A stretch of 64,000 nucleotides of DNA from an uncultured Myxococcales bacterium (GTDB lineage: Bacteria > Myxococcota_A > Polyangia > Palsa-1104 > JAEUJZ01), in assembly GCA_937868485.1 (NCBI GenBank), contig CALMML010000112.1:4161-68160 (forward strand). The letters run 5' to 3'. Positions 1 to 12,014 of the stretch are shown here, in pieces. The notes under the pieces are model-generated. The model worked only from the letters and a program-made list of their open reading frames with translations, did no database searches and was not told the DNA's origin. The position numbers and the translations under genes are program-made. Each line of letters opens with the position of its first letter. The stretch's first letter is position 1.

Positions 1-806
1 CCGTTAATGGCCTTAATCAAGTCGGCGTTTTGCAGTCCAATCTTGGAAAAGATGGACGCTGTGCGGATATTGTAAAGCTTGAAGCCCGACGGCTTTCCGT
101 CCTTGATCCACGGAACAAATCGAGCACTCGTAGCCAGCGCGGTGGTATTGGCCAATACCTTGTCGATCAGGCTCTTATCGACTTCACAGTTGCTGCCCGT
201 GCAGCGAACGCCCTTTTCGACATCTTTTTCAATGCCGGTCGGGTCTGTCGTGCTCGGCTCTGCGGAAGCCACAGCGCTGGGCGGCGGCGGTGGCGGCTCT
301 TTGTCGCTGGTCAGGTACTCGATGCGCTTGCCCACGACCAAGTAGACACGGCCTTCGATGACCTGCGCGACGATGGCACCGCCTTGCGTCAGCTTGTCAC
401 CGCGACGGAAGATGCCCACTCGCTTGCGATCATCGCTGGTGTCACGAATGACCGCCATCGACCAGTCCCAGTCGCCCGGTGACACCATCGTCGCCACCAG
501 CGCCAGCGGCAGGCTGCTTCGCTGCGGCGTCTGATCGACCGGACCCTCTTCCTGCGCTTTTTCCGGCGTCAGCGAGATCGGCGCGCAGCTACTACAGAAG
601 ATGTTGCGACGAAGAATCGCCTCGATGTCTTTGGAACGGCTCTTTTCGGCGCTGGTCGCAACGCTGGCTTCCCGCCTCGGGAACGGTGGACCATCGCCTC
701 GCAAAAGGACCGAAACCGCCGAGTTTGCCGTCGTGCGACCGACCAGCGCAGCACAAACTCCGACGACAAGAAGGTTTACGACCCAGAAGTAGTTCTTGAC
801 TAGCAC
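1..806 (-). CDS. GspC-like type II secretion component (N-terminal TM helix, PDZ-like C-terminal region). 3' partial; the C-terminus runs off the window start.
   Basis: Minus-strand frame is open from a GTG at 806 (in-frame stop just upstream at 834-836) to position 1. Translation begins VKNYFWVVNLLVVGVCAALVG (TM) and ends ...GFKLYNIRTASIFSKIGLQNADLIKAING, a PDZ-like G-x-L...D-x-I-x-x-ING motif. It is absent from the ORF track only because it is truncated by the window edge. Confidence 0.45.
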   Translation of the reverse strand, partial: MLVKNYFWVVNLLVVGVCAALVGRTTANSAVSVLLRGDGPPFPRREASVATSAEKSRSKDIEAILRRNIFCSSCAPISLTPEKAQEEGPVDQTPQRSSLPLALVATMVSPGDWDWSMAVIRDTSDDRKRVGIFRRGDKLTQGGAIVAQVIEGRVYLVVGKRIEYLTSDKEPPPPPPSAVASAEPSTTDPTGIEKDVEKGVRCTGSNCEVDKSLIDKVLANTTALATSARFVPWIKDGKPSGFKLYNIRTASIFSKIGLQNADLIKAIN

Positions 807-1115
807 GGCCTTTGACTCCGCCTCAGCCCAGAGCTAATGCAAAGCCTGGGCCATCTTCGCTACGCAGACAGAACCGTCGGCTCGACGAGGACTTCGCCAC
901 ACCGGACCTTCGCTTCGCTCGCTGCGGCTGCCAGTTTGACACAGTGACCAGCCGACGCCGCCAGCTACTTTGCCAATTTGACAAGCGACCCAGACCAAGG
1001 TGTGCGGCCCCTGACCACTTCGACGACACCAGGGTCGGCCCGGCTGAGCGGCTCGCCGAAGCGGTCGCACCATCGCGCCGGAAATCGCGGTATGCTGAAC
1101 AAGTCCTAGGAAACC

Positions 1116-2060
1116 TTGATGTTGGTGTCGATCTCCGAGGGTGTGCTGCTGGAACGGGCTGTCGCGACCGGGCTGATTTCCGCAGTGGATGTTGCAGCGG
1201 CGCGCGCGGATCAAACGACGCTGACGAGGCCTCGCAAGTGGGGGCTGCTGCTCGATCGACTGATCGCATCCGGGAAGCTGAGCGACGAACAGGTTCGACA
1301 GCTGCACGACGACTTCATGCGCGGAACGCCAGGTGCGGCGGCGCTCGACCGAACGATGGACGGCGGGCTGGCGCGCACGATGGACGGCGGGCCGGTTCAG
1401 ACGAGCGACCACATCTTGGACCAGACGATCGACGGAGTGCTGGCGCAGACCATGGACAGCGGGCCCGATCGGGCCAAAGCAAGTCCGTCGGTGGCTCCGG
1501 TCAGTCCGTCGCCCAGCTTTCCCGCGCCACACTGGGACAAGTACGAGTTTTTGGAGCTGCTCGGACGAGGTGGTATGGGCGCTGTCTATCGGGCCCGCGA
1601 CCGACGGCTCGGTCGGCTGGTCGCGCTGAAGTTCATTCACGGCGACGATCCGGGGCTGATTCAGCGCTTTTTGCAGGAAGCCCGCTCGCAAGCACGGCTC
1701 GATCACCCGTTTATCTGCAAGGTCTTCGAAGTCGGCACCGTCGATAGCAAGCCCTACATCGCGATGGAGCTGGTCGACGGACGCACGCTCGACCGTCTGA
1801 GCCCGCAGCTTACGCTGAGCAACAAGCTCCAGATCGTCAAAGACACCGCCGAAGCGCTTCACCACGCCCACGAGCAAGGCATCGTCCACCGCGACATTAA
1901 GCCGTCTACCGATGTTCCCCTCGAACTGTCCGAAAAGACTTCCCTTTTCCGAAGAAGTATGCATGGGAAGTCAGCGCACGCGGGGAGGCCGGCAAGACGG
2001 ACGCCGCCCGCGCAATCGGACACGCTCCTTAGCCCGACTTTGGCGCAGACGGCTGCATAA
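1116..2060 (+). CDS. Hanks-type Ser/Thr protein kinase, N-terminal fragment. The gene is disrupted; the frame continues into inserted DNA after the catalytic loop. Likely a pseudogene piece.
   Basis: Glycine loop [14 protein letters not shown]-like ALKF, conserved E (QEARS), and HRDIKPS catalytic loop. After HRDIKPS the translation becomes non-kinase ([10 protein letters not shown]...). The missing continuation NIMIEQ...DFG...APE sits at 6452 onward. Confidence 0.8.
1902..1908. repeat. Left copy of a 7-bp direct repeat CCGTCTA at the kinase/insert junction (target-site-duplication-like).
   Basis: aagCCGTCTAccgat here versus cagCCGTCTAacatc at 6445-6451. Joining the flanks restores HRDIKPSNIMIEQRTDGGFRPVLMDFGLAR. 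Confidence 0.55.
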
Positions 2061-3936
2061 GACGCTGCAAGATCTGCTGTGCCGACTCTTCCGCTGACAG
2101 CGTCGTCGTATCAAGGCGCAGCTCGGGAGACTCCGGTGGCTCGTAGGGAGAGTCAATTCCCGTAAAGTTTTTGAGCTGCTTCGCACGCGCCTTTTTGTAA
2201 AGACCCTTGGGATCGCGACGCTCTGCTTCCGCAACCGGCGTGTCGACGAAGATCTCCAGGAACTCACCCGGCGCAAACAGACTTCGCGCCAGCGCACGCT
2301 CGGAACGGAATGGCGAGATAAACGCCACCAGCACAATCAGTCCGGCATCGACCATCAGCTTCGCAACTTCCGCCACACGGCGAATGTTTTCCACGCGATC
2401 CGCTGCGGTAAATCCCAGGTCTTTGCTGAGTCCGTGCCGGATGTTGTCTCCGTCGAGCAGATAGGTGTGTTTTCCCTGCGCGTAGAGCTTCTTTTCGAGC
2501 AGGTTCGCAATCGTCGACTTGCCCGCGCCCGATAGTCCCGTAAACCACAGCACGCACGGCGTCTGTCCCTTCTGCGCCGCGCGCGTCTCTTTGTTCAGAT
2601 CGAGCGCTTGCCAGTGAATGTTGTCCGCTCGTCGGAGAGCGAAGTGAACCAGACCCGCCGCCGCCGTTGTGTTGCTGATGCGATCGATCAGGATGAAGCC
2701 TCCGGTTTCCCGGTGTTCCTGATACGGATCAAACGTGATCGCGCGATCAATGCTCAGGTTACAGACTGCGATTTCGTTGAGTCCCAGCGTGCGCGCCACC
2801 ACCTGATCCAGCGTGTTTACATTGACCTTGTGACGAAGCGAAGTCACCGTCGCTGTAGCGAGCTGCGTTCCGATCTTGATGAGATAGGGACGACCGGGCA
2901 AAAGCGGCTCCTCTTGCATCCAGATCAGCGTGGCTTGCAGCTGATCCGCACAGGTCGCAGGATGCACGGGATCCACCAGCAGATCGCCTCTGCTCACATC
3001 GATTTCTTGTGTCAGGGAAACGGTCACAGACTGTCCCGCGCAGGCTTCCTTTTGCAATCCGTTTGCGCCCCAGATCGAAGCCACTTCCGCGATGATTCCC
3101 GACGGCATCACCCGCAGCTTGGCGCCTTCCTGAATCACTCCGCTAGCGACCAGTCCTGAAAAGCCACGGAAGTCCTGATGCGGACGATTCACCCACTGCA
3201 CCGGAAGTCGAAACGGCTGACTCTGCGGCGAATGGGACACATCCACCGTTTCCAAATGATCGAGCAGAGTCGGTCCCTCATAGTACGGAGTCTGGCTACT
3301 TCGCGCAGTAACATTGTCCCCTTTGAGCGCCGAGATAGGAATCGCCAGCACGTCGGACAGACTGATGCGCGCCGCAAACTCTGCGTACTCCTTTTGGATC
3401 GCAGAAAAGACCGCACGATCAAAGCCCACTGCATCCATCTTGTTGATCGCCAGCACCACTTTGCGAATGCCCAGCAGAGACACCAGATAGCTGTGTCTGC
3501 GCGTCTGGGTCAGCACTCCTTTGCGCGCATCAATGAGCAGAATCGCCAGCTCACAGTTGCTGGCCGCTGTCACCATGTTGCGCGTGTACTGCTCATGTCC
3601 TGGTGTATCAGCGACGATGAACTTGCGCTTGTCGGTTGAAAAGAAGCGATACGCAACATCGATCGTGATGCCTTGCTCGCGCTCTGCGGCCAGTCCATCA
3701 ACAAGCAGAGACAGATCCAGATCTTCGCTCTGTGGATTCCGTTTTTTCGACTCTGCTTCAATCGCCGCCAGATGATCCGCAAAGATCAGCTTCGATTCAT
3801 ACAGCAGCCTTCCGATCAGCGTGCTCTTGCCATCATCGACGCTGCCGCAGGTCATAAAGCGCAAAAGACTCTTTCCTTCATGCGCCTTGAGGTACTGCTC
3901 AATGTCAGCCGCGATCAGCTCGGACTTGTGAGACAT
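2029..3936 (-). CDS. cysNC: Bifunctional sulfate adenylyltransferase subunit 1 / adenylylsulfate kinase (CysN/CysC).
   Basis: N-terminal GTPase motifs [19 protein letters not shown]-terminal APS kinase P-loop GLSGAGKST. 635 aa. Confidence 0.9.
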
Positions 3937-4835
3937 TAGAAGTATCCTTCCTGCTTCTTTTTTTCCATCGAGGCCGCTTGATCGTGATCAATCGCGCGTC
4001 CTTGTCGCTCGGAAGTCGTCGTCAGCAGCATCTCTTGAATGATCGCGGGCAGCGTGTCTGCTTCGCTTTCAATCGCGCCGGTCAGCGGATAACAACCAAG
4101 CGTTCGGAAACGGACTTTCTTGCGCTGCGGAGTCTCTCCTTCCCGCAGCGGCAAGCGATCATCATCCACCATCAAGAGCATTCCGCCGCGCTCAACCACC
4201 GGACGCTCTGCCGCAAAGTAGAGCGGAACGATCGGAATCTGTTCCAGGTAGATGTACTGCCAGACATCCAGCTCGGTCCAGTTCGACAAAGGAAAGACAC
4301 GGATGCTCTCTCCCTTGCGCTTGCGGGTGTTGTAAAGCCGCCACAGCTCTGGACGCTGATTCTTCGGATCCCAGCGATGATCCGCACTGCGAAAGGAAAA
4401 CACGCGCTCTTTGGCTCGCGACTTTTCCTCATCGCGGCGCGCACCCCCAATCGCTGCATCAAAGCCATGCAGATCGAGCGCACGCTTGAGCGCCTGCGTC
4501 TTCATCACATCGGTATGCACCGACGATCCGTGCGTAAACGGACTGATGCCCGCATCCAGTCCTTCCTGATGGATGTAGACAATCAGGTTGAGCGATTCCT
4601 GCTGCGCAACCTGATCGCGAAAAGAGATCATCTCGCGAAACTTCCAGGTCGTATCCACATGCAGAAGCGGAAACGGAATCCGTCCCGGTGCAAACGCTTT
4701 CTTGGCCAGGTGCAGCATCACCGAGCTGTCCTTGCCAATCGAGTACATCATCACAGGACGCTCGCACTCTGCGACCACTTCTCGCAGGATGTGAATGCTC
4801 TCTGCTTCGAGCCGTTGTAGATGGGTCAGCGACAT
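3936..4835 (-). CDS. cysD: Sulfate adenylyltransferase subunit 2 (CysD).
   Basis: PAPS-reductase-like ATP pyrophosphatase fold. Motif [13 protein letters not shown] is typical CysD. It overlaps the cysNC start by 1 bp, consistent with an operon. Confidence 0.9.
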
Positions 4836-4970
4836 GCTCTCTCCGATTCGGTAGTGGTCCTACAACGCCCAGCCAAAAAAGTCAGCAGAGAACTTTTCGC
4901 GAAGACATACCGAGCCAATATTATGCATCTATTCTGCTTCATATTGTGACGTCCGTCGATCGCACAAGCG

Positions 4971-6311
4971 GTGTTCGGGAATCATCGCTGTGCGCACAGA
5001 CCTTGCGTTACAGGCTTGCGACTCTGCGCCGAATCCCGCATCGTCTTGCAGATGACGCGACACCTCGATCTTCGCCGCTTGGGACAGTGGATCCTGCTGG
5101 GTCACGTCGTGGGAGCGGTCTGTGGTGCGGGCTCTGCGCTGTTTTTGTGGCTGCTCGATCTGGCCACCAACACGCGCGTACAGCATCCGCAGATCGTGTA
5201 TGCACTGCCGCTTGCCGGCCTTGGGATCGGCTGGTTTTATCAGCGCTTTGGTCAGCCGGTGAAGGCTGGTAGTAACCTGGTGATTGATACGATCTCGGAC
5301 AACGGTCCAGAGCTGCCGCTGCGAATGGCCCCGATGGTGCTGTTCGGAACGGTCCTGACCCATCTGTTTGGCGGAAGCGCAGGACGCGAGGGAACTGCCG
5401 TGCAGCTTGGCGCGAGCTTGACCGACTTTCTGTCGCATCGGCTCCGTCTGTCTTCCGCACTACGGAGACAGCTTCTGTGCGCAGGAGTCGCGGGAGGCTT
5501 CGGCTCTGTGTTTGGGACTCCGATGGCAGGAATGATCTTCGGACTCGAGTTCGTGGTGCTGGGACGCATCGAGTATGAAGCGCTGGTTCCGGCTTTGATT
5601 GCCGCTCTCATCGGGGATCTGGTGACGCGCTCGCTCGGAATCGTTCACACCAGCTATCCGACGCCAGCAGCGCTGCCGCTGTCACCGCTGCTGCTTGTAA
5701 AGTGGCTGCTGTTTGCCATCGCGACTGCGCTCACCACCACGCTGTTTATTGAGCTGGTTCATGCACTGAAAAAGCAAGGCGAGCGCTTCCTTCCGCAGCT
5801 CTCTGTTCGCATGATGCTGGGTGGTCTGTCTGTGCTCGCGCTGTGGAAGCTGTTCGGAAGCGACGACTACTTGGGCTTGGGCGTTCCCACCATCGTGCGC
5901 GCGTTTACCGATCCGACCCTTCCGTCCTATTCCTTTGCGGCCAAGCTTCTGTTTACTGCGCTCACGATCGGAGCGGGCTTTTTGGGCGGGGAAGTGACTC
6001 CGCTCTTTTTCATTGGAGCCACGCTAGGGAATGTCCTTGCGCAGTTCCTAGGAATCCCGCTGTCCCTGGGCGCTGGCGTCGGTCTGGCTGCGGTGTTTGC
6101 TGCGGCATCGAACACTCCGCTGGCGCTGTCTGTGATGGCGGTGGAGCTGCTGGGAGCCCACGTCTTGCCGCACGTTGTGATTGTCTGTGTGCTGTCCTAT
6201 CTGCTGTGCGGACACCGCAGCATCTACCAAGCGCAGCGACTCCTTCGCACCAAGTCGGGATCAGAGCTTGCGCAGATGACCACGCTTCGTCACGACTCCG
6301 GTTCCACGTAA
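4971..6311 (+). CDS. ClC family chloride channel / H+-Cl- exchanger.
   Basis: GSAGREGT, GxFxP-like and GGEVTPLFFIGATLG motifs. Polytopic membrane protein. The start could instead be the internal M at about 5052 (MTRHLDLRRLGQW...). An AT-rich divergent promoter region (4836-4970) is shared with cysD. Confidence 0.8.
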   Translation: MFGNHRCAHRPCVTGLRLCAESRIVLQMTRHLDLRRLGQWILLGHVVGAVCGAGSALFLWLLDLATNTRVQHPQIVYALPLAGLGIGWFYQRFGQPVKAGSNLVIDTISDNGPELPLRMAPMVLFGTVLTHLFGGSAGREGTAVQLGASLTDFLSHRLRLSSALRRQLLCAGVAGGFGSVFGTPMAGMIFGLEFVVLGRIEYEALVPALIAALIGDLVTRSLGIVHTSYPTPAALPLSPLLLVKWLLFAIATALTTTLFIELVHALKKQGERFLPQLSVRMMLGGLSVLALWKLFGSDDYLGLGVPTIVRAFTDPTLPSYSFAAKLLFTALTIGAGFLGGEVTPLFFIGATLGNVLAQFLGIPLSLGAGVGLAAVFAAASNTPLALSVMAVELLGAHVLPHVVIVCVLSYLLCGHRSIYQAQRLLRTKSGSELAQMTTLRHDSGST

Positions 6312-6326
6312 ACACAACCAGATTCC

Positions 6327-6356
6327 CAGCGCTGCGCAGGCTCCTACGCAGCGCTG
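6327..6356 (+). terminator. GC-rich hairpin just downstream of the ClC gene (cagcgctgcg-N10-cgcagcgctg).
   Basis: Perfect 10-bp inverted repeat with a 10-nt loop, 16 bp after the stop codon. No U-tract follows, which is common in high-GC genomes. Confidence 0.5.
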
Positions 6357-6444
6357 CACGCCTTCCCTCCCACTTCCGAACAGAGTCTCTGCATCCCGAT
6401 ACTCCGACGGAAACGATGCAAAGATTGATCGACCAAGGAAGCAG

Positions 6445-6451
6445 CCGTCTA
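6445..6451. repeat. Right copy of the 7-bp direct repeat CCGTCTA.
   Basis: See 1902-1908. Confidence 0.55.
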
Positions 6452-6456
6452 ACATC

Positions 6457-9165
6457 ATGATCGAGCAGCGCACGGACGGCGGCTTTCGTCCGGTGCTGAT
6501 GGACTTCGGTCTGGCGCGCGAAAGTGGCGACTCCCATGGACTCACAGAGTCCGGTGCGGTGATGGGAACGCCTGCGTATATGTCGCCGGAGCAAGCACGC
6601 GGAGAAGCACGACGGCTCGATCGACGCAGCGATGTCTACAGCTTGGGTGCGACGCTGTATGAAGTGCTGGTTGGACGGCCTCCGTTTGAAGATCAGACCG
6701 TCATCAACATCCTGCTCAAGGTGATGAACGATCCGCCGACTCCACTGCGGAGCCTCGATCCGCAGATCCCGGAAGCGGTGGAGCTGGTGGTCAGCAAGTG
6801 TCTGAACAAGGAACCCGAGCAGCGCTATCAGACGGCCAAGGCGCTCGCAGAGGATCTCGGTCGGTATCTGTCCACAGAGCGCGTGCAGGCCAAGCGGCTG
6901 AGCTATACGTATCGGCTGACCTACTGGGCGCGTCAGAATCGAACGCTGGCAGCACTCGCAGCGATCCTGTGTGTGACCGTGATCAGCGCGCTAGGAATCG
7001 GCATCCGAGCGCGGATCATCGCGGTGCAAAAGGAACGTCGCGCCAAAGAGCAAGCCGAGCTTTCCCGTCGGATTGGACAGTCTGTTCAAGATCTAGAGTG
7101 GGTCGCACGCACTGCGTATCTGCTGCCGCTTCATGACACGTCCTATGAACAGAAGCTCGTGCGGGATCGCATGACAGAGATCCAGCAAGAGCTGCAAGGA
7201 CACAGCGACAGTGGGCCTCGGCTGGAAGCGTATGCGCGTGGACGTGGACTGTTGGCGCTGCACGACTTTGGCGGCGCACAAACAGAGCTAGCGCGTGCAG
7301 AGCGGCTGGGACATGTCGATCTCGAGCTGGACTATGCACTCGGTCGCGCGCTCGGTGAGCTGTATTCCCAAGCGCTCGATGATGCACGCAAGAGCGGTGA
7401 CAAGAGCTTCTTTGAAAAGCGCAAGGCAGAGCTGGATGCAGAGCTGCTCCGTCCGGCGCTGCGTTACCTACAGCGGAGTCGCGCGCTGCGCAGTGTGTCG
7501 TCTCTGTATGTCGAAGGACTGATTGCCTACTTTCAGCAGGACTTCGACCTGGCCCTGACCCGCGCAGAGCAGGCCCAGAAGCTGGCCCCGTGGCTGTATG
7601 AAGCGGTGAAGCTGGGCGGCGATGTCTTGTTGGAGCGCGCTCGGGCCGAGCGAGATCGCGGCGAGCACGATCGCGCAGCGCAGCACTTTGCAGAGTCCGT
7701 CGCGCGCTACAAGCAAGCCGCAGAGATTGGCCGCAGCGATCACAGCGTCCACGAAGCACTGGCCGAAGCCTACATCCGCTGGGAAGAGCTGGACTACTTC
7801 CGAGGCAAAAACCCCGAGCCCTATCTCCAAGAAGCCCTGCGCGCTGCCGACAAGGCCCTTGTCGCTGCCCCCAAAGCCTCCCACGGCCACACCAAAAAGG
7901 CGTTTGCCTATTATTTCTACGGCGAATATTCAAAACAGCATTTATCACCACAACAAACACGAATGCTCAGAAAGAACCAGATCGAGGAAGGCATTAGTGC
8001 GACCATTCAACATCACGATGACCCATATGCCCACGAAATCACTGGCCTTGGTTTTTGCAGAGCAGCAGAAGTAGACTCAGAAAACAGCAAATCTCACATA
8101 AAAAATGCAGTCTTTTATCTTGATAAATCAGTCAGAATAAACCAGCGATTCCCATGGGCCTACAACGACTATGCCATTGCGCTGCTGGCAGAGTCCAAGC
8201 TCCAGCAGCAGTCCAATCAAAGCCCGATTGACACGATCCAGCGTGCGGTTGCCCTGGCCGAGCAAGCGCTGACGATTGACCCAGGATACATCTATGCGAT
8301 GAATACCATCACTGCAGCCAGCCTGCGTGCCAGCACCTGGCTGATCGAGCATGGCCAAGATCCCAGCGTCTGGATTCAAAAAGGGATTCAAGCCGCATCG
8401 CAAGTCCTAGCGATAAACAAGAACTTTCCACTTGCACATGGAAACATTGGCACGATCTTGATGAACAAGTCCTTTTACGAATTACTGGCTGGAATCAATC
8501 TATCTGGCAGCAAAACTGCTTGCATTTCATCCTTTCGTCAAATGATCAACATCTCAGGATCCTCAGCGGATGTACAAAGCTACATTGCCATCCTTCATCA
8601 CTTTGAAGCGCTACAAATCTTACAAAATAAAAACAACCCGTCTGCAACCATTGACGAAGGACTCAAAGCCATCGAGTCATGCACAAACACGATCAACAAA
8701 GATCCATACTGCATAGATGCACAGGCTCGTCTTTTATCAGCAAAATCAGCATGGCTCATTGAAAACAAGCAAGATTTTAAGACAACGCTAGAGCAATCAT
8801 ACCGACTTGCACAGACAGCCGCTCAGAGTCTGGGCGACGAACCGGATGCTCTCCTTTCCCTGGGAGAAATTGCTCTCTTGCTGATAACGGAAGGTTCAAT
8901 ACCGCAGGCACGACGACTCGCTGTCATCCAGCAAGGCATTGGCGGACTAGACAGAGCGCTGGCGAATCAGCTGGGCTGGCCGCGTGCCTTGGTTGTCAAA
9001 GGGGCGCTGCTGCGCGTTCGGGCGCAGGGTGAGCGGGGCATTCAGCGACAATCGACGCTGCGGATGGCGAGGGATGCACTGAAGGAAGGGCTGGCGGGGA
9101 ATCCGCTGCTTAGGCGACAGTACGGCACGACGCTGGCAGAGCTGGAGCAACAGCTCGCACCGTAA
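6457..9165 (+). CDS. Ser/Thr kinase C-lobe (DFG through APE to subdomain XI) fused to a ~700 aa TPR-like helical repeat domain. This is the continuation of the disrupted kinase at 1116.
   Basis: MIEQRTDGGFRPVLMDFGLAR, GTPAYMSPEQ and DVYSLGATLYEVLVGRPPF motifs. A predicted TM helix follows (LAALAAILCVTVISALGIGI), then long helical repeats. The first in-frame ATG is at 6457. Upstream in frame reads KQPSNI, matching the missing HRDIKPSNI. Confidence 0.8.
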   Translation: MIEQRTDGGFRPVLMDFGLARESGDSHGLTESGAVMGTPAYMSPEQARGEARRLDRRSDVYSLGATLYEVLVGRPPFEDQTVINILLKVMNDPPTPLRSLDPQIPEAVELVVSKCLNKEPEQRYQTAKALAEDLGRYLSTERVQAKRLSYTYRLTYWARQNRTLAALAAILCVTVISALGIGIRARIIAVQKERRAKEQAELSRRIGQSVQDLEWVARTAYLLPLHDTSYEQKLVRDRMTEIQQELQGHSDSGPRLEAYARGRGLLALHDFGGAQTELARAERLGHVDLELDYALGRALGELYSQALDDARKSGDKSFFEKRKAELDAELLRPALRYLQRSRALRSVSSLYVEGLIAYFQQDFDLALTRAEQAQKLAPWLYEAVKLGGDVLLERARAERDRGEHDRAAQHFAESVARYKQAAEIGRSDHSVHEALAEAYIRWEELDYFRGKNPEPYLQEALRAADKALVAAPKASHGHTKKAFAYYFYGEYSKQHLSPQQTRMLRKNQIEEGISATIQHHDDPYAHEITGLGFCRAAEVDSENSKSHIKNAVFYLDKSVRINQRFPWAYNDYAIALLAESKLQQQSNQSPIDTIQRAVALAEQALTIDPGYIYAMNTITAASLRASTWLIEHGQDPSVWIQKGIQAASQVLAINKNFPLAHGNIGTILMNKSFYELLAGINLSGSKTACISSFRQMINISGSSADVQSYIAILHHFEALQILQNKNNPSATIDEGLKAIESCTNTINKDPYCIDAQARLLSAKSAWLIENKQDFKTTLEQSYRLAQTAAQSLGDEPDALLSLGEIALLLITEGSIPQARRLAVIQQGIGGLDRALANQLGWPRALVVKGALLRVRAQGERGIQRQSTLRMARDALKEGLAGNPLLRRQYGTTLAELEQQLAP

Positions 9166-9192
9166 CGAAGCGATGGCGAACAGGAAAGGACG

Positions 9193-10281
9193 CTAGTTCG
9201 CGACGCACTCACCAGCGGCGCTGGTCAGGGTGCAGGGACGAGCGCTGAGCAGCACGCCAGAGTGGCTGCTGGTGCACGCCACAAAGCGACTCGGGCACTG
9301 CGTCTTGATGATGGCCAGGCGCTGTAGCAGGGTGGTGTTGGTGCTGCGGTACTCGCTTTCGTTGAAGCAGGACGCACCGTTTTCGTTCCAGAACGCCTCC
9401 ATCGTGGCGAGGGTCTGGTTCGTATCGGCGTGAATGCCGACGCGGTCTTTGACGTGAATCGTGGTCACGCCCTGCGCGGCATCGTAGCCAGTGGTCAGCG
9501 GGCTTCCTGATCCACAGACATCATCGCGCTTCATCCGCGTACACGCCTGGTGAACCGACGCCATCGAGACCGGCTTGCCCGTCACTTCGTCCGGTCGCGT
9601 TCCCCATGGACCGTAGCCCCACTCGACGCAGCCGCCGATGGCATCCTGCGAGCAGCCGAGCGTGATGGCGTTGGCATCGCTCACCTTGCTACCGCTCAGG
9701 TTCCAGCGAACGCCGCCAATCGGGATCATCGTCTCGTAGACCGTCTGGGTGGTGGTCTTGGTGACCAGTACCTCACGCGGGCACAGACCAACCGACGTGG
9801 TCGCATCGTCGGCATGGGCCGACACCCACTGTGTGGTGTAGCGGCTAAACGATCCATCGGTTGCGGTCGAAGCTGCGGTGATCCGCAGCGTTCCCGCCAG
9901 TGGCGCGGCCACCGTCAAGACCAGCTCGACCGAGGCATCTTCTGCATCGGCACCAATCACCAGAAACGATCCCTGCGCAGTGGTCAGGCTCTGTGGCGCA
10001 ATCGCCTGTCCGTTGTAGGCAATCGACGTCACCTGCGCATAGGTCAGGCTGCTGCCCGTGCTGACAAACCACGCGCCGCCCGAAAAGTACAGGCCGGTCA
10101 CCGTCTGACCTTCCAGCGTCGCCGAAAACAGCTGGTTGTAGTTGGTGCTGGACCACCCGTCTCCGCGAATCGCCTGCTGGACGGCATCCCGACTGGTGTC
10201 TTCCGGCTCGACCCCACAGCCACTTCCGATCACGCTGGCCAGACACAGAACTGAAAACATCTTGTGAAGCGACATCGTCAT
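9193..10281 (-). CDS. Hypothetical secreted lipoprotein.
   Basis: Start MTMSLHKMFSVLCLASVIGSGC gives a signal peptide plus lipobox Cys. AGGAG sits immediately upstream of the ATG. No recognisable domain. The ORF-track start at 10494 lacks an RBS, so I trimmed it to 10281. Confidence 0.55.
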   Translation of the reverse strand: MTMSLHKMFSVLCLASVIGSGCGVEPEDTSRDAVQQAIRGDGWSSTNYNQLFSATLEGQTVTGLYFSGGAWFVSTGSSLTYAQVTSIAYNGQAIAPQSLTTAQGSFLVIGADAEDASVELVLTVAAPLAGTLRITAASTATDGSFSRYTTQWVSAHADDATTSVGLCPREVLVTKTTTQTVYETMIPIGGVRWNLSGSKVSDANAITLGCSQDAIGGCVEWGYGPWGTRPDEVTGKPVSMASVHQACTRMKRDDVCGSGSPLTTGYDAAQGVTTIHVKDRVGIHADTNQTLATMEAFWNENGASCFNESEYRSTNTTLLQRLAIIKTQCPSRFVACTSSHSGVLLSARPCTLTSAAGECVAN

Positions 10282-10625
10282 CTCCTGGTTGAACTTCTCT
10301 ACGGGCGATACATCCCAAAATGCGTGCCAACAGAATCTGTAGTTTCGTCGGAGATGGGCTTGCGCAACACAGCAGAGCGCGCCGAACTCCCAACCGATAG
10401 GAATCACAAAGGAATCGAAGTCCTTCGCGGAGCAGACAGACTCCCCATCACGCACGCCTAGACAGCCCAGCTTGTGACAGTGGCACTGACACAACCGCTG
10501 TCACATGTGTCACCCCGTGCCAGACTCCCAAGCCCGGACTCCTGGGTACAGACGCCCCACGCGGGACGCCCTTCTGCAGACTCCGCAGTCCACCCCGGTA
10601 CGGACTCCCAAGCGATGCTGCACGC

Positions 10626-12014
10626 TTAGGGCTCTTCGTCTTCATCCAGAACATCGGCGCGACTGCCACTGACCTGTACGCCGTACTTGGTCAGCAAGCG
10701 CTTAAGCTGCGTCCGATGCAGTCCCAAAAGCCGCGCGGATGCACTGATGTTGCCCTCACTTCGCCGCAGCGCTTCCTCGATTTGATTCCGATCGGGCTGT
10801 TCTTTGCGTGAAATCGGCGGATGAAGCAGCACCGCGCACGGCGGCGTGGACTCCTCACTGCGCTCGATGGGCTGACCGGCGTGTGCGCTCAGGTGCGAAG
10901 GCTCCAGACGACTCGACTCTCTTCCCAAGGCCTGATGCGCGGCGGCGCGAACTTCCGCCAGCAGCTCTCGGACATTGCCCGGCCAGGCACGCAAAAGACA
11001 CAGCTCGACAAACAGCGCATGCACGGACAGCGCTTGAGGAATCGCGCGCAGCCCCAGCTGAATCAGCCACGGAATCTCTTCGGGACGCTGACGAAGAAGA
11101 GGCACCGTCACACTCGGACTGCCAATGCGAAAATAGAGATCTTCCCGAAAGCGCGAGCTGCTTACTTCTTGCCGCAGGTTGCGATGGGAAGCGGTACAGA
11201 TGGACAGGTTCACCAGCCGAGGACGCAGCGCGCCCATCGCCAGCACTTCTTTGGTTTCAATGACGCGAAGGAGCTTGGCTTGGACCGCCAAATCCAGCTC
11301 TGCCACTTCATCCAGAAACAGTGTTCCACCGTCGGCAGACTGAATCAGTCCTTCGCTGTCTGCAACCGCTCCTGAAAACGCGCCACGGCGCGCCCCAAAC
11401 AGCAGTCGCTCTGCCACACCTGGAGCAATCGTCGCACAGTTTATCGCAACAAACGGACCGCTGCCGCGCTGACCAGCGGAGTGAAACGCGCGCGCGATTC
11501 CTTCTTTGCCGCTGCCACTGTCTCCGGTGATGTGTAGCGTCCTTCCGTACTGTGCCGCACGCGCCGCTTGTTGCAGCGCTTCCTGAAGCAGCGGACCGAC
11601 GACGCGATCCTCTGTCACCCGCACGCCCAGCTTTTGAAACGGACGAAGATCCGCGCAAAACAGAAACAGCGAGTCCCCCGTTCGCAGCACCTTCGCCACC
11701 GCGCTCGCGATCGATCCAGTGACGCGCACACCATCGACATAACAGCCGTTTTGACTGCCCAGATCGCTCACCCGAAAGCGCTCTCCGTCAAACGAGACAC
11801 TTGCGTGCTTGCGCGACATCCGAGGATCGCTCGGAAACAGCGACTTTCCATCGCCGCGTCCCACTTCCAGCGCATTCCCTGTCATCGGAATCGCCGTGCA
11901 GCGCGGTGTCCCTTGCGCAAAGACCAGTAGCAGACCTGGAACCGGAAGCCCGCTGCCTTCGCCTCCCGCTGTACTGCTTACGGAGTCGCGCAAGGTCACA
12001 GGTTGATTCGCCAT
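10626..12014 (-). CDS. Sigma-54-dependent Fis-family transcriptional activator with an N-terminal FHA domain.
   Basis: FHA core (GR...DP..SR.HA....G..F.V.DLGS.NG..V). AAA+ sigma-54 interaction domain with Walker A GDSGSGKE and a GAFTGA-like GAFSGA loop. C-terminal Fis HTH (ARLLGLHRTQLKRLL). Confidence 0.85.
   Translation of the reverse strand: MANQPVTLRDSVSSTAGGEGSGLPVPGLLLVFAQGTPRCTAIPMTGNALEVGRGDGKSLFPSDPRMSRKHASVSFDGERFRVSDLGSQNGCYVDGVRVTGSIASAVAKVLRTGDSLFLFCADLRPFQKLGVRVTEDRVVGPLLQEALQQAARAAQYGRTLHITGDSGSGKEGIARAFHSAGQRGSGPFVAINCATIAPGVAERLLFGARRGAFSGAVADSEGLIQSADGGTLFLDEVAELDLAVQAKLLRVIETKEVLAMGALRPRLVNLSICTASHRNLRQEVSSSRFREDLYFRIGSPSVTVPLLRQRPEEIPWLIQLGLRAIPQALSVHALFVELCLLRAWPGNVRELLAEVRAAAHQALGRESSRLEPSHLSAHAGQPIERSEESTPPCAVLLHPPISRKEQPDRNQIEEALRRSEGNISASARLLGLHRTQLKRLLTKYGVQVSGSRADVLDEDEEP

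Follow-up and report, generated by a model that had tools for sequence, protein, structure and literature searches.

How two sharply AT-rich stretches came to lie inside a single gene of a GC-rich genome is the question raised by an open reading frame (ORF) at positions 6457-9165, on the forward strand, of a 64,000-nucleotide (nt) piece of contig CALMML010000112.1 from an uncultured Myxococcales bacterium; this whole piece is called the window below. The ORF belongs to a receptor-type Ser/Thr kinase gene, and an earlier note on this DNA had taken the two patches as the sign of a segment acquired from a foreign source, for example by exchange of repeat cassettes or by gene conversion. Comparison of the locus with its counterparts in other assemblies suggests another answer. 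The patches are probably two hypervariable allelic cassettes in the extracytoplasmic tetratricopeptide repeat (TPR) sensor domain of a single-pass receptor Ser/Thr kinase, and these cassettes would be ancient, balanced and shuffled by recombination. The kinase itself is conserved in the Polyangia (Myxococcota).

Composition and allelic structure of the patches

The window has a GC content of 62.4%, lower than the ~66% background assumed in the earlier note. Over its 64 kb, the GC content of 240-nt sliding windows has a mean of 0.625, a standard deviation of 0.042 and a minimum of 0.40, more than 5 standard deviations under the mean, and values below 0.48 are found solely at the two patches. 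Their positions had been given correctly: they lie at 7912-8151 and ~8385-8830, with ~40-44% GC, the lowest in the window. In 120-nt windows, GC ranges from 0.39 to 0.48 over 7900-8199 and from 0.40 to 0.43 over 8380-8799. The stretch that separates the patches had been called GC-normal, and so it is, with GC of 0.56-0.59 in 120-nt windows over 8140-8379 and of 0.55-0.59 at 8152-8384. All three codon positions lose GC; at third positions (GC3) it falls from ~0.70 to ~0.40 in a sliding plot (range 0.23-0.50) and at first positions (GC1) from ~0.75 to 0.30-0.55, while GC3 is 0.72-0.83 in most window genes. Values under those of most window genes were also recorded for the genes at 2029-6311, which belong to an insert described below (0.65-0.68), and for an FHA-sigma54 activator gene at 10626-12014 (0.62). 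On their coding strand, the patches are rich in A and poor in G (A 0.35, G 0.17-0.18, versus A 0.21 and G 0.32 in the upstream ectodomain). The protein that they encode is enriched in Ile, Asn, Ser, Thr and Lys and depleted in Arg, Glu, Leu and Ala, a shift which would follow from the AT-richness.

The same locus, with the same neighbours, was compared in the independent assemblies designated L001, L002, L003, L004, L005-L008 and L046. Five independently assembled orthologous loci were found to be 98-100% identical to the window outside the patches and only ~50% identical inside one or other of two hypervariable regions (HVRs). HVR1 coincides with the first patch at 7912-8151 on the forward strand (amino acids (aa) 486-565; allele GC 0.37-0.50). 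HVR2 occupies 8385-8995 on the same strand (aa 643-847); its part from 8385 to 8830 is AT-rich, and its last 165 nt are variable but GC-normal. The two are separated by a conserved, GC-normal spacer at 8152-8384 of the forward strand (FPWAYND ... DPGYIYAMNT ... EHGQDP), which is 85-100% identical to that of L001-L004 and in which F565, P566, W567, N570 and D571 are invariant.

In an alignment of the window with L002 over 19 kb, all 200-nt bins had an identity of at least 0.90 (mostly 0.97-1.00), except for 7801-8200 at 0.67-0.79. Codon alignments with L002, L003 and L004 gave ~1.00 up to 7896, 0.35-0.67 up to 8136 and 0.85-1.00 from there on; the alignment with L001 gave 0.98-1.00 over HVR1 and 0.40-0.57 at 8437-8976. 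The density of mismatches in HVR1 against L002, L003 and L004 was 0.50-0.55 per site inside and ~0.02 outside (binomial P ~1e-84 to 1e-92). Against L001, 305 of the 335 mismatches fell inside HVR2, at 0.50 per site versus 0.014 outside (P = 2e-158), and outside the cassettes the density was 0.014-0.024 per site in all comparisons. The left edge of HVR1, taken as the first mismatch, lies at 7912/7913 in three different alleles (L002, L003 and L004), and HVR2 in L001 runs from 8385 to 8995. Smaller blocks were seen as well: 8397-8437 is common to L001, L002 and L004 and not to L003, and a mosaic sub-block at 8310-8317 in the spacer is present in some strains only. A conserved nucleotide anchor at the cassette edges was considered and rejected, as third-position identity to distant clades (0.34-0.39) was not clearly above that of the surroundings.

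The window carries HVR1 allele 1a together with HVR2 allele 2a. Allele 1a is shared with L001 (97-100% identical), where it is combined with HVR2 allele 2b; allele 2a is shared with L002, L003 and L004 (91-99% aa identity), where it is combined with HVR1 alleles 1b, 1c and 1d, respectively. A third HVR2 allele, 2c (49% aa identity), stands on identical flanks in L046, a contig-end fragment that does not cover HVR1. The two cassettes, HVR1 and HVR2, are unrelated in sequence. The mosaicism inside the gene that had been proposed earlier is thereby borne out, the patches being swapped as whole blocks between strains that are 98-100% identical elsewhere.

Most of the compared sequences are metagenomic and many database entries break near the HVRs, which could suggest an assembly artefact, that is, a chimeric consensus of co-occurring strains. 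This is almost certainly not the case: the HVR1 of the window is reproduced in frame by L001 and its HVR2 by L002, L003 and L004, all of them independent assemblies from other samples, and chimerism would touch only the phase of HVR1 and HVR2, not the existence of the alleles.

The block-wise, discrete alleles with their sharp edges and the sub-blocks 8310-8317 and 8397-8437 would also be expected if silent donor cassettes elsewhere in the chromosome converted the gene, in the manner of pilE/pilS or vlsE antigenic variation. The family has 2-3 paralogs per genome (L013, L025 and L031, for example, come from one metagenome-assembled genome), and the module also occurs without the kinase or in other fusions (L025, P0124), both of which speak for such a process. 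However, the 64-kb window contains no second copy of HVR1 or HVR2 at the DNA or protein level, the known paralogs are 29-43% identical and mostly complete genes, and the short proteins resembling HVR2 that were examined are pieces of orthologs cut off at contig ends, not cassettes. Conversion from silent copies is distinctly unlikely. The cassette exchange proposed earlier holds if it means that alleles were replaced by homologous recombination; exchange with repeat copies of the same genome is not supported, no second copy or template being present in 64 kb.

The age of the alleles was judged from synonymous (pS) and nonsynonymous (pN) divergence. Between allele classes, pS is 0.69-0.85 and pN 0.41-0.50, both saturated; the backbones of the same strains have a pS of 0.01-0.10, and their N-terminal ectodomains one of 0.01-0.02. 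Within a class, pS is 0.00 in HVR1 (window versus L001) and 0.04-0.09 in HVR2 (window versus L002-L004). This bimodal divergence, saturated between classes and backbone-like within them, indicates discrete old alleles that are moved by recombination and not the work of a local mutator. In the spacer, pS is 0.10-0.27, above that of the N-terminal ectodomain, which fits linkage to balanced polymorphisms. The ratio of nonsynonymous to synonymous rates (dN/dS) within classes is 0.05-0.5; hence, the cassettes are constrained. Their fold, too, is preserved.

Targeted hypermutation in place, by a diversity-generating retroelement (DGR) or another local mutator, would likewise confine variability to short stretches of a binding-type domain, as is seen here. 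It is nevertheless extremely unlikely. No template repeat was found in the 64 kb and no reverse transcriptase among the 15 window ORFs scanned; the ~50% mismatches extend over all bases and codon positions, with indels in addition, and are not adenine-restricted. Moreover, strains with the same allele show no excess divergence (pS 0.00-0.09), and the bimodality noted above also stands against it.

On backbones with 98-100% identity, four HVR1 alleles were found that share only 26-42% protein identity; they differ from one another as much as do alleles taken from clades with 60-80% backbone identity. One allele class, at least, is common to different clades: protein P0002 has an HVR1 with 67% identity to that of P0005, although their backbones are 86% identical, and with only 34-35% identity to those of its own clade-mates (backbones 98-99%). 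There are 34 protein pairs with backbones at least 93% identical, many of them just 17-60% identical in the HVRs, and cultured Polyangium species are included, with P0042 and P0065 sharing 96% of the backbone but only about 60% of the HVRs. The pattern recurs in many clades of the kinase family, and the locus has the features of a polymorphic sensor kinase, namely discrete, divergent sensor classes beside a conserved kinase within a species-level group. The signature of long-term balancing selection is also present, with saturated pS on backbones of pS 0.01-0.02, a spacer pS of 0.10-0.27 and an HVR1 class that crosses clades.

The old alleles thus persist in the population, and homologous recombination in the conserved flanks moves them between backgrounds. 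According to the proposed explanation, they would be maintained by long-term balancing or negative frequency-dependent selection on a surface for the recognition of a ligand or partner, about one turn of the TPR superhelix in size, and the signal probably passes via the kinase to the neighbouring FHA-sigma54 activator. Selection is invoked because neutral alleles of such age should not persist on homogenised backbones and because tracts imported neutrally should have divergent flanks and end at scattered positions.

The main alternative to selection is neutral introgression, in which the C-terminal half of the ectodomain, weakly constrained and fast-evolving, would receive occasional imports from diverged relatives with no selection maintaining the alleles. 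By entropy, the region that bears the HVRs is the least conserved part of the family, and recombination with diverged lineages is seen at the locus, as L001 has 84% identity to the window before the split in the kinase gene and 98% after it. But the end points are not scattered, nor are the flanks diverged: in each of three independent alleles the identity of the flank persists as far as 7912/7913. No donor backbone matches. Saturated alleles on backbones with a pS of 0.01-0.02 would not be expected to persist, and the within-class dN/dS of 0.05-0.5 points to constraint. Neutral introgression is hence regarded as unlikely.

Origin of the AT-richness

Searches with the whole protein returned thousands of relatives, all from Polyangia or Myxococcota, with identities graded downward from 93%. 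An exhaustive HMMER search with HVR2 only, covering 1.84 billion representatives, gave only 60 matches, the best with 38% identity. Those that were examined, or that could be recognised by length and match position, come from the C-terminal portion of proteins of this kinase family, and the matches in multiple stretches look like generic TPR proteins. Word-index protein searches gave one match for HVR2 alone and none for HVR1 alone, but they missed the near-identical proteins P0001-P0003 and are therefore uninformative as negatives. A scan of metagenome contigs yielded 14 loci and no close relative carrying both HVRs. Within the family, the C-terminal half of the ectodomain is the least conserved, with an entropy of 2.0-2.8 bits versus ~1.0-1.9 elsewhere.

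Many of the database proteins matching HVR2 are just 230-340 aa long. The sequences of P0121-P0123, P0125, P0127 and P0129 were read and found to be C-terminal fragments of family members, and P0121 begins at the end of a contig (L046, 1-1021), which points to the hypervariable part as a place where assemblies of metagenomes are prone to break. The variable module, from ESHGHTKK to the C-terminus, was also found fused to a lipoprotein signal and other TPRs in P0124 (600 aa) and in a kinase-less paralog (L025, 3884-6145), contexts in which it behaves as an independent module.

Horizontal acquisition from a foreign low-GC lineage, the reading first given to the patches, has their strongly atypical composition in its favour. 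Against it, no ortholog lacks the segment, its position and scaffold residues do not change, all alleles can be aligned with one another, and the exhaustive search made with HVR2 alone, which might have brought up best matches from another lineage, found only this family and generic TPR proteins (best 38%). In addition, the GC content of the patches lies below that of every backbone or locus examined in the family, where the lowest locus value is 0.52, and no mobility genes were found at the patches. A foreign origin is very unlikely.

The distribution of base composition over the family was considered next to this. All alleles in the wider clade of the window are AT-rich (GC 0.37-0.50, GC3 0.28-0.46), including those of the intact L001 gene, and a clear drop in GC was also observed in L009-L011, L013, L025 and L027-L030. 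No family member examined has a backbone or locus GC as low as that of the cassettes. The AT-richness is a property of the cassette pool and lineage and no mark of a foreign donor. The earlier note had allowed that orthologs of the same composition would speak for a conserved lineage feature rather than a recent mosaic; the composition is indeed shared by all alleles of the clade, and the content of the patches is still mosaic.

Mutation in bacteria is AT-biased, and what keeps genomes GC-rich against it is either selection or GC-biased gene conversion, a process linked to recombination (PMC2936529, PMC4450053). Diverged allele classes would be unable to recombine with each other inside a cassette. 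The cassettes would in this way escape the GC-favouring force, whether biased gene conversion or selection, that keeps the genome at 62% GC, and would drift toward the equilibrium of AT-biased mutation. The AT-richness is probably a by-product of such mutation where homogenising recombination does not reach. Polarised singletons outside the HVRs comprised 103 GC-to-AT and 71 AT-to-GC changes, giving an equilibrium GC of ~0.50 versus a present GC of 0.59 at those sites; the count, which included 219 events, some of them possibly recombination imports, lends modest support to AT-biased input.

The receptor kinase, its insert and its neighbours

The ORF at 6457-9165 (forward strand, 902 aa) had been described as one continuous frame for a kinase with a C-terminal domain of helical repeats. 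It is open throughout and includes the peptide quoted from it, and a kinase with a C-terminal helical domain is indeed concerned, although the ORF encodes only the C-terminal fragment of a split gene for a receptor-type Hanks Ser/Thr kinase, made up of the C-lobe, a transmembrane helix and the TPR ectodomain. The C-lobe, from the DFG motif to the end of the catalytic domain (6496-6852, forward strand), matches PF00069 with E = 2.9e-16 and 60.1 bits versus a cut-off of 31.7 (aa 14-132, profile positions 139-260 of 263); it contains MDFGLAR and SPEQ, and dN/dS in this lobe is 0.07 versus L005. The N-lobe and HRD motif are not in this ORF. The Gly loop, Lys and HRDIKPS were found by translation on a separate ORF at 1116-2060 of the forward strand, which encodes the N-terminal kinase fragment (N-terminal region and N-lobe) and enters the insert from 1909. 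The equivalent part of L001 matches positions 1-130 of the Pfam Pkinase profile. A complete catalytic domain in one polypeptide is thus absent from ORF 6457-9165 and present in the intact ortholog (P0004/L001).

A single predicted transmembrane helix, TLAALAAILCVTVISALGIGI, was read from the translation at 6943-7005 of the forward strand (aa 163-183), within a long helix of the structural model (H162-222). The remainder, 7006-9162 on the same strand, is predicted to form an all-alpha, TPR-like superhelical ectodomain of ~700 aa and ~17 hairpins, according to DSSP on an AlphaFold2 model and to Foldseek. The model, built with 115 homologs, has a mean pLDDT of 91.3 and shows an all-alpha solenoid with 30+ helices. 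The top solved structure in Foldseek was the TPR domain of O-GlcNAc transferase (1w3b; E = 6.5e-10, target-normalised TM-score 0.64). Pfam matches to TPR are weak, TPR_17 reaching 25.5 bits versus a cut-off of 24.4 on the segment alone and the other TPR matches staying under threshold. By the model, the ectodomain is a TPR superhelix of tandem hairpins. The helical repeats proposed earlier hold good as TPR-like helical hairpins and not as direct or tandem repeats of the DNA; a search of 6200-10600 for direct, inverted and tandem repeats gave matches of chance size only. An Rfam search of both strands found nothing, and no promoter- or terminator-like sites were found in 6250-6520.

On this model HVR1 spans ~3.5 helices (aa 486-565) and HVR2 ~5 hairpins (aa 643-847), with the two conserved hairpins of the spacer (FPWAYND...) between them; from known TPR geometry, the three together would make up roughly one superhelical turn. 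A pair of cysteines in HVR2, C742 and C752, is kept in at least 90% of the 115 aligned homologs, and, together with the single transmembrane helix, it suggests that the TPR domain lies outside the cytoplasm. A small mosaic block was seen at the 3' end of the ORF (9111-9149), where the tail of L003/P0001 resembles that of the L005 clade.

The split in the kinase gene is due to an insert of 4.53 kb at 1909-6442, which interrupts the catalytic loop (HRDIKPS | N) and is absent from the intact ortholog L001. It carries, by Pfam, a cysNC-like gene (2029-3936, reverse strand), a PAPS reductase gene (3936-4835, reverse strand) and a ClC channel gene (4971-6311, forward strand). The junction alignment showed that it is flanked by a 9-bp direct repeat, AGCCGTCTA, at 1900-1908 and 6443-6451 of the forward strand. 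AGCCGTCTA occurs nowhere else in the window, and if the two repeats recombined with each other, the product would be precisely the uninterrupted sequence of L001. The insert is present in L002, L003, L005-L007 and L009, and L004 has only its ClC end, at the edge of a contig.

Since the gene is split in its catalytic loop, the AT-richness might be put down to pseudogene decay, with the C-terminal part of a broken kinase gene drifting to AT. This account has next to no probability: the intact ortholog L001 carries the same AT-rich HVRs, the ORF is open in all strains, the AT drop is limited to two sharp-edged blocks, and pN/pS between two split lineages is ~0.07 for both halves of the kinase. 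The value of 0.07 for each half indicates that both are under purifying selection. The halves may make up a kinase in two pieces, the insert may be an intervening element that can be excised precisely, or intact alleles may have repaired the gene repeatedly.

Some further observations concern the split. The same right junction (…QPSNIM…) was found in L009 and L010 (3380-3440 in each), of clades 62-70% identical to the window; the upstream context in L010 differs, as the ClC gene is missing there and the other strand encodes a complete kinase. Intact genes (P0004, P0006, P0007 and P0011) are interleaved with split ones of near-identical backbone. Upstream of the split, L001 (159-2052) and the window (1-1908) are 84% identical, and from the split on they are 98% identical, so that a recombination breakpoint coincides with the insert junction. 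Just past the ClC stop codon, at 6327-6356, lies a near-perfect 14-nt palindrome (CAGCGCTGCGCAGG / CCTACGCAGCGCTG) with no T-run, and no terminator was called.

Next to the kinase, a gene for an ADYC-domain lipoprotein (9193-10275, reverse strand; PF20032, E = 1.9e-28) was found, which also stands beside the kinase in L001-L005, L008, L010 and L046. A stretch of 24 aa at ~10141-10212, just after the lipobox Cys and including three residues after DGW, differs in every strain compared, and the rest of this lipoprotein is nearly invariant. Apart from this stretch the flanks are 97-100% identical, and the strains compared are too few to reveal co-variation. The variable stretch could be a partner of the variable ectodomain. 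Another conserved neighbour is the gene for an activator with FHA, sigma-54 AAA+ and helix-turn-helix domains by Pfam (10626-12014, reverse strand), which also adjoins the kinase in L010 and in the Polyangium sp. L014. FHA domains bind phosphothreonine, so the activator is likely to be the output partner of the kinase.

It is possible, if rather doubtful, that the locus forms a hitherto undescribed self/non-self or strain-specific signal recognition system of the Polyangia, a bacterial counterpart of the SRK-type receptor kinases of plants. The cassettes would then determine which form of a polymorphic partner, extracellular or periplasmic, is recognised; this partner might be the ADYC lipoprotein or an unlinked factor, and recognition would be relayed by threonine phosphorylation to the FHA-sigma54 activator.

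Several points weigh against balanced, recombining cassettes in a periplasmic sensor, or against parts of that explanation. No ligand or co-varying partner gene was found, 10 kb on each side being nearly invariant but for the 24-aa stretch of the ADYC lipoprotein. Saturation bars an estimate of dN/dS between classes and the ratio within classes is below 1, so that positive selection is not directly shown. Most of the comparison sequences are metagenome assemblies, in which the phase of HVR1 and HVR2 could in principle be chimeric. The drop in GC is absent in L012 and L020 and small in Polyangium isolates (GC3 from 0.92 to 0.70-0.90), and the equilibrium GC of 0.50 implied by the singletons exceeds the GC of the HVRs (~0.41). 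Finally, the periplasmic placement depends on one predicted transmembrane helix and the Cys pair.

Comparison with known systems

The literature searched contained no description of this kinase family, nor did it report a locus of this kind for any Hanks-type receptor kinase that has a TPR ectodomain. To our knowledge, bacterial loci with discrete, ancient and recombining allele classes nearly always centre on recognition or conflict, as in quorum-sensing pherotypes, kin recognition and receptors for phages or toxins. Myxobacteria are social and have huge repertoires of kinases, mostly without known ligands; a ligand-facing turn marked by hypervariability would offer a concrete place for a ligand search and a hypothesis that can be tested. 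The locus also provides a clean natural case for the debate on GC maintenance, with segments that cannot be homogenised lying 20 GC points below their flanks in one ORF. In practical terms, such cassettes break metagenome assemblies and can be taken for foreign DNA.

A conserved, GC-normal part and an AT-richer, strain-variable part in one ORF are also known from Rhs core extensions and the central domain of flagellin. Rhs tips, however, are toxin domains swapped with orphan cassettes and flagellin is a surface antigen, whereas the variable parts described here are two internal blocks of a TPR solenoid. With the variable regions of DGRs, the cassettes share the occurrence of short hypervariable stretches in a ligand-binding domain. 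DGR variation differs in being templated, adenine-specific and continuous, and in needing a reverse transcriptase and a template repeat, neither of which was seen at the window locus (64 kb; 15 ORFs).

The comQXP pherotypes of Bacillus comprise divergent sensor allele classes exchanged by recombination. The staphylococcal agr hypervariable region, which covers the sensor AgrC together with AgrB and AgrD, likewise occurs in discrete classes exchanged by recombination (PMC10482373). In these systems, as in the window, a conserved signalling kinase domain is joined to a sensor that falls into discrete, highly divergent classes within a species. They differ in that they use histidine kinases with polytopic membrane sensors and have the gene for the cognate peptide inside the hypervariable block, whereas the window locus has a Hanks-type kinase, a 700-aa TPR ectodomain and no evident co-varying ligand gene within ~10 kb.

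In myxobacteria, kin recognition for outer-membrane exchange depends on the variable domain of TraA, whose allele groups are shuffled by horizontal transfer and homologous recombination (PMC6372800, PMC3820747). TraA resembles the window protein in belonging to the same phylum and in having, at a single locus, a polymorphic domain for recognition specificity with many allele groups. In contrast, TraA is an adhesin of the outer membrane whose variable domain is PA14-like and whose binding is homotypic, and the window protein is an inner-membrane receptor kinase with TPRs; no relationship in sequence or fold between the two was found in this analysis.

In SRK of the Brassicaceae, very old alleles are kept by balancing selection (PMC2045110). 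SRK is a eukaryotic protein with an S-domain/lectin ectodomain and a tightly linked ligand gene, SCR, and in these respects it is unlike the window protein. The window locus resembles agr/comQXP, TraA and SRK in its evolutionary behaviour but belongs to none of these families; with SRK it shares a receptor Ser/Thr kinase in which a few hypervariable regions of the ectodomain are combined with a conserved kinase domain, a resemblance that is evolutionary only.

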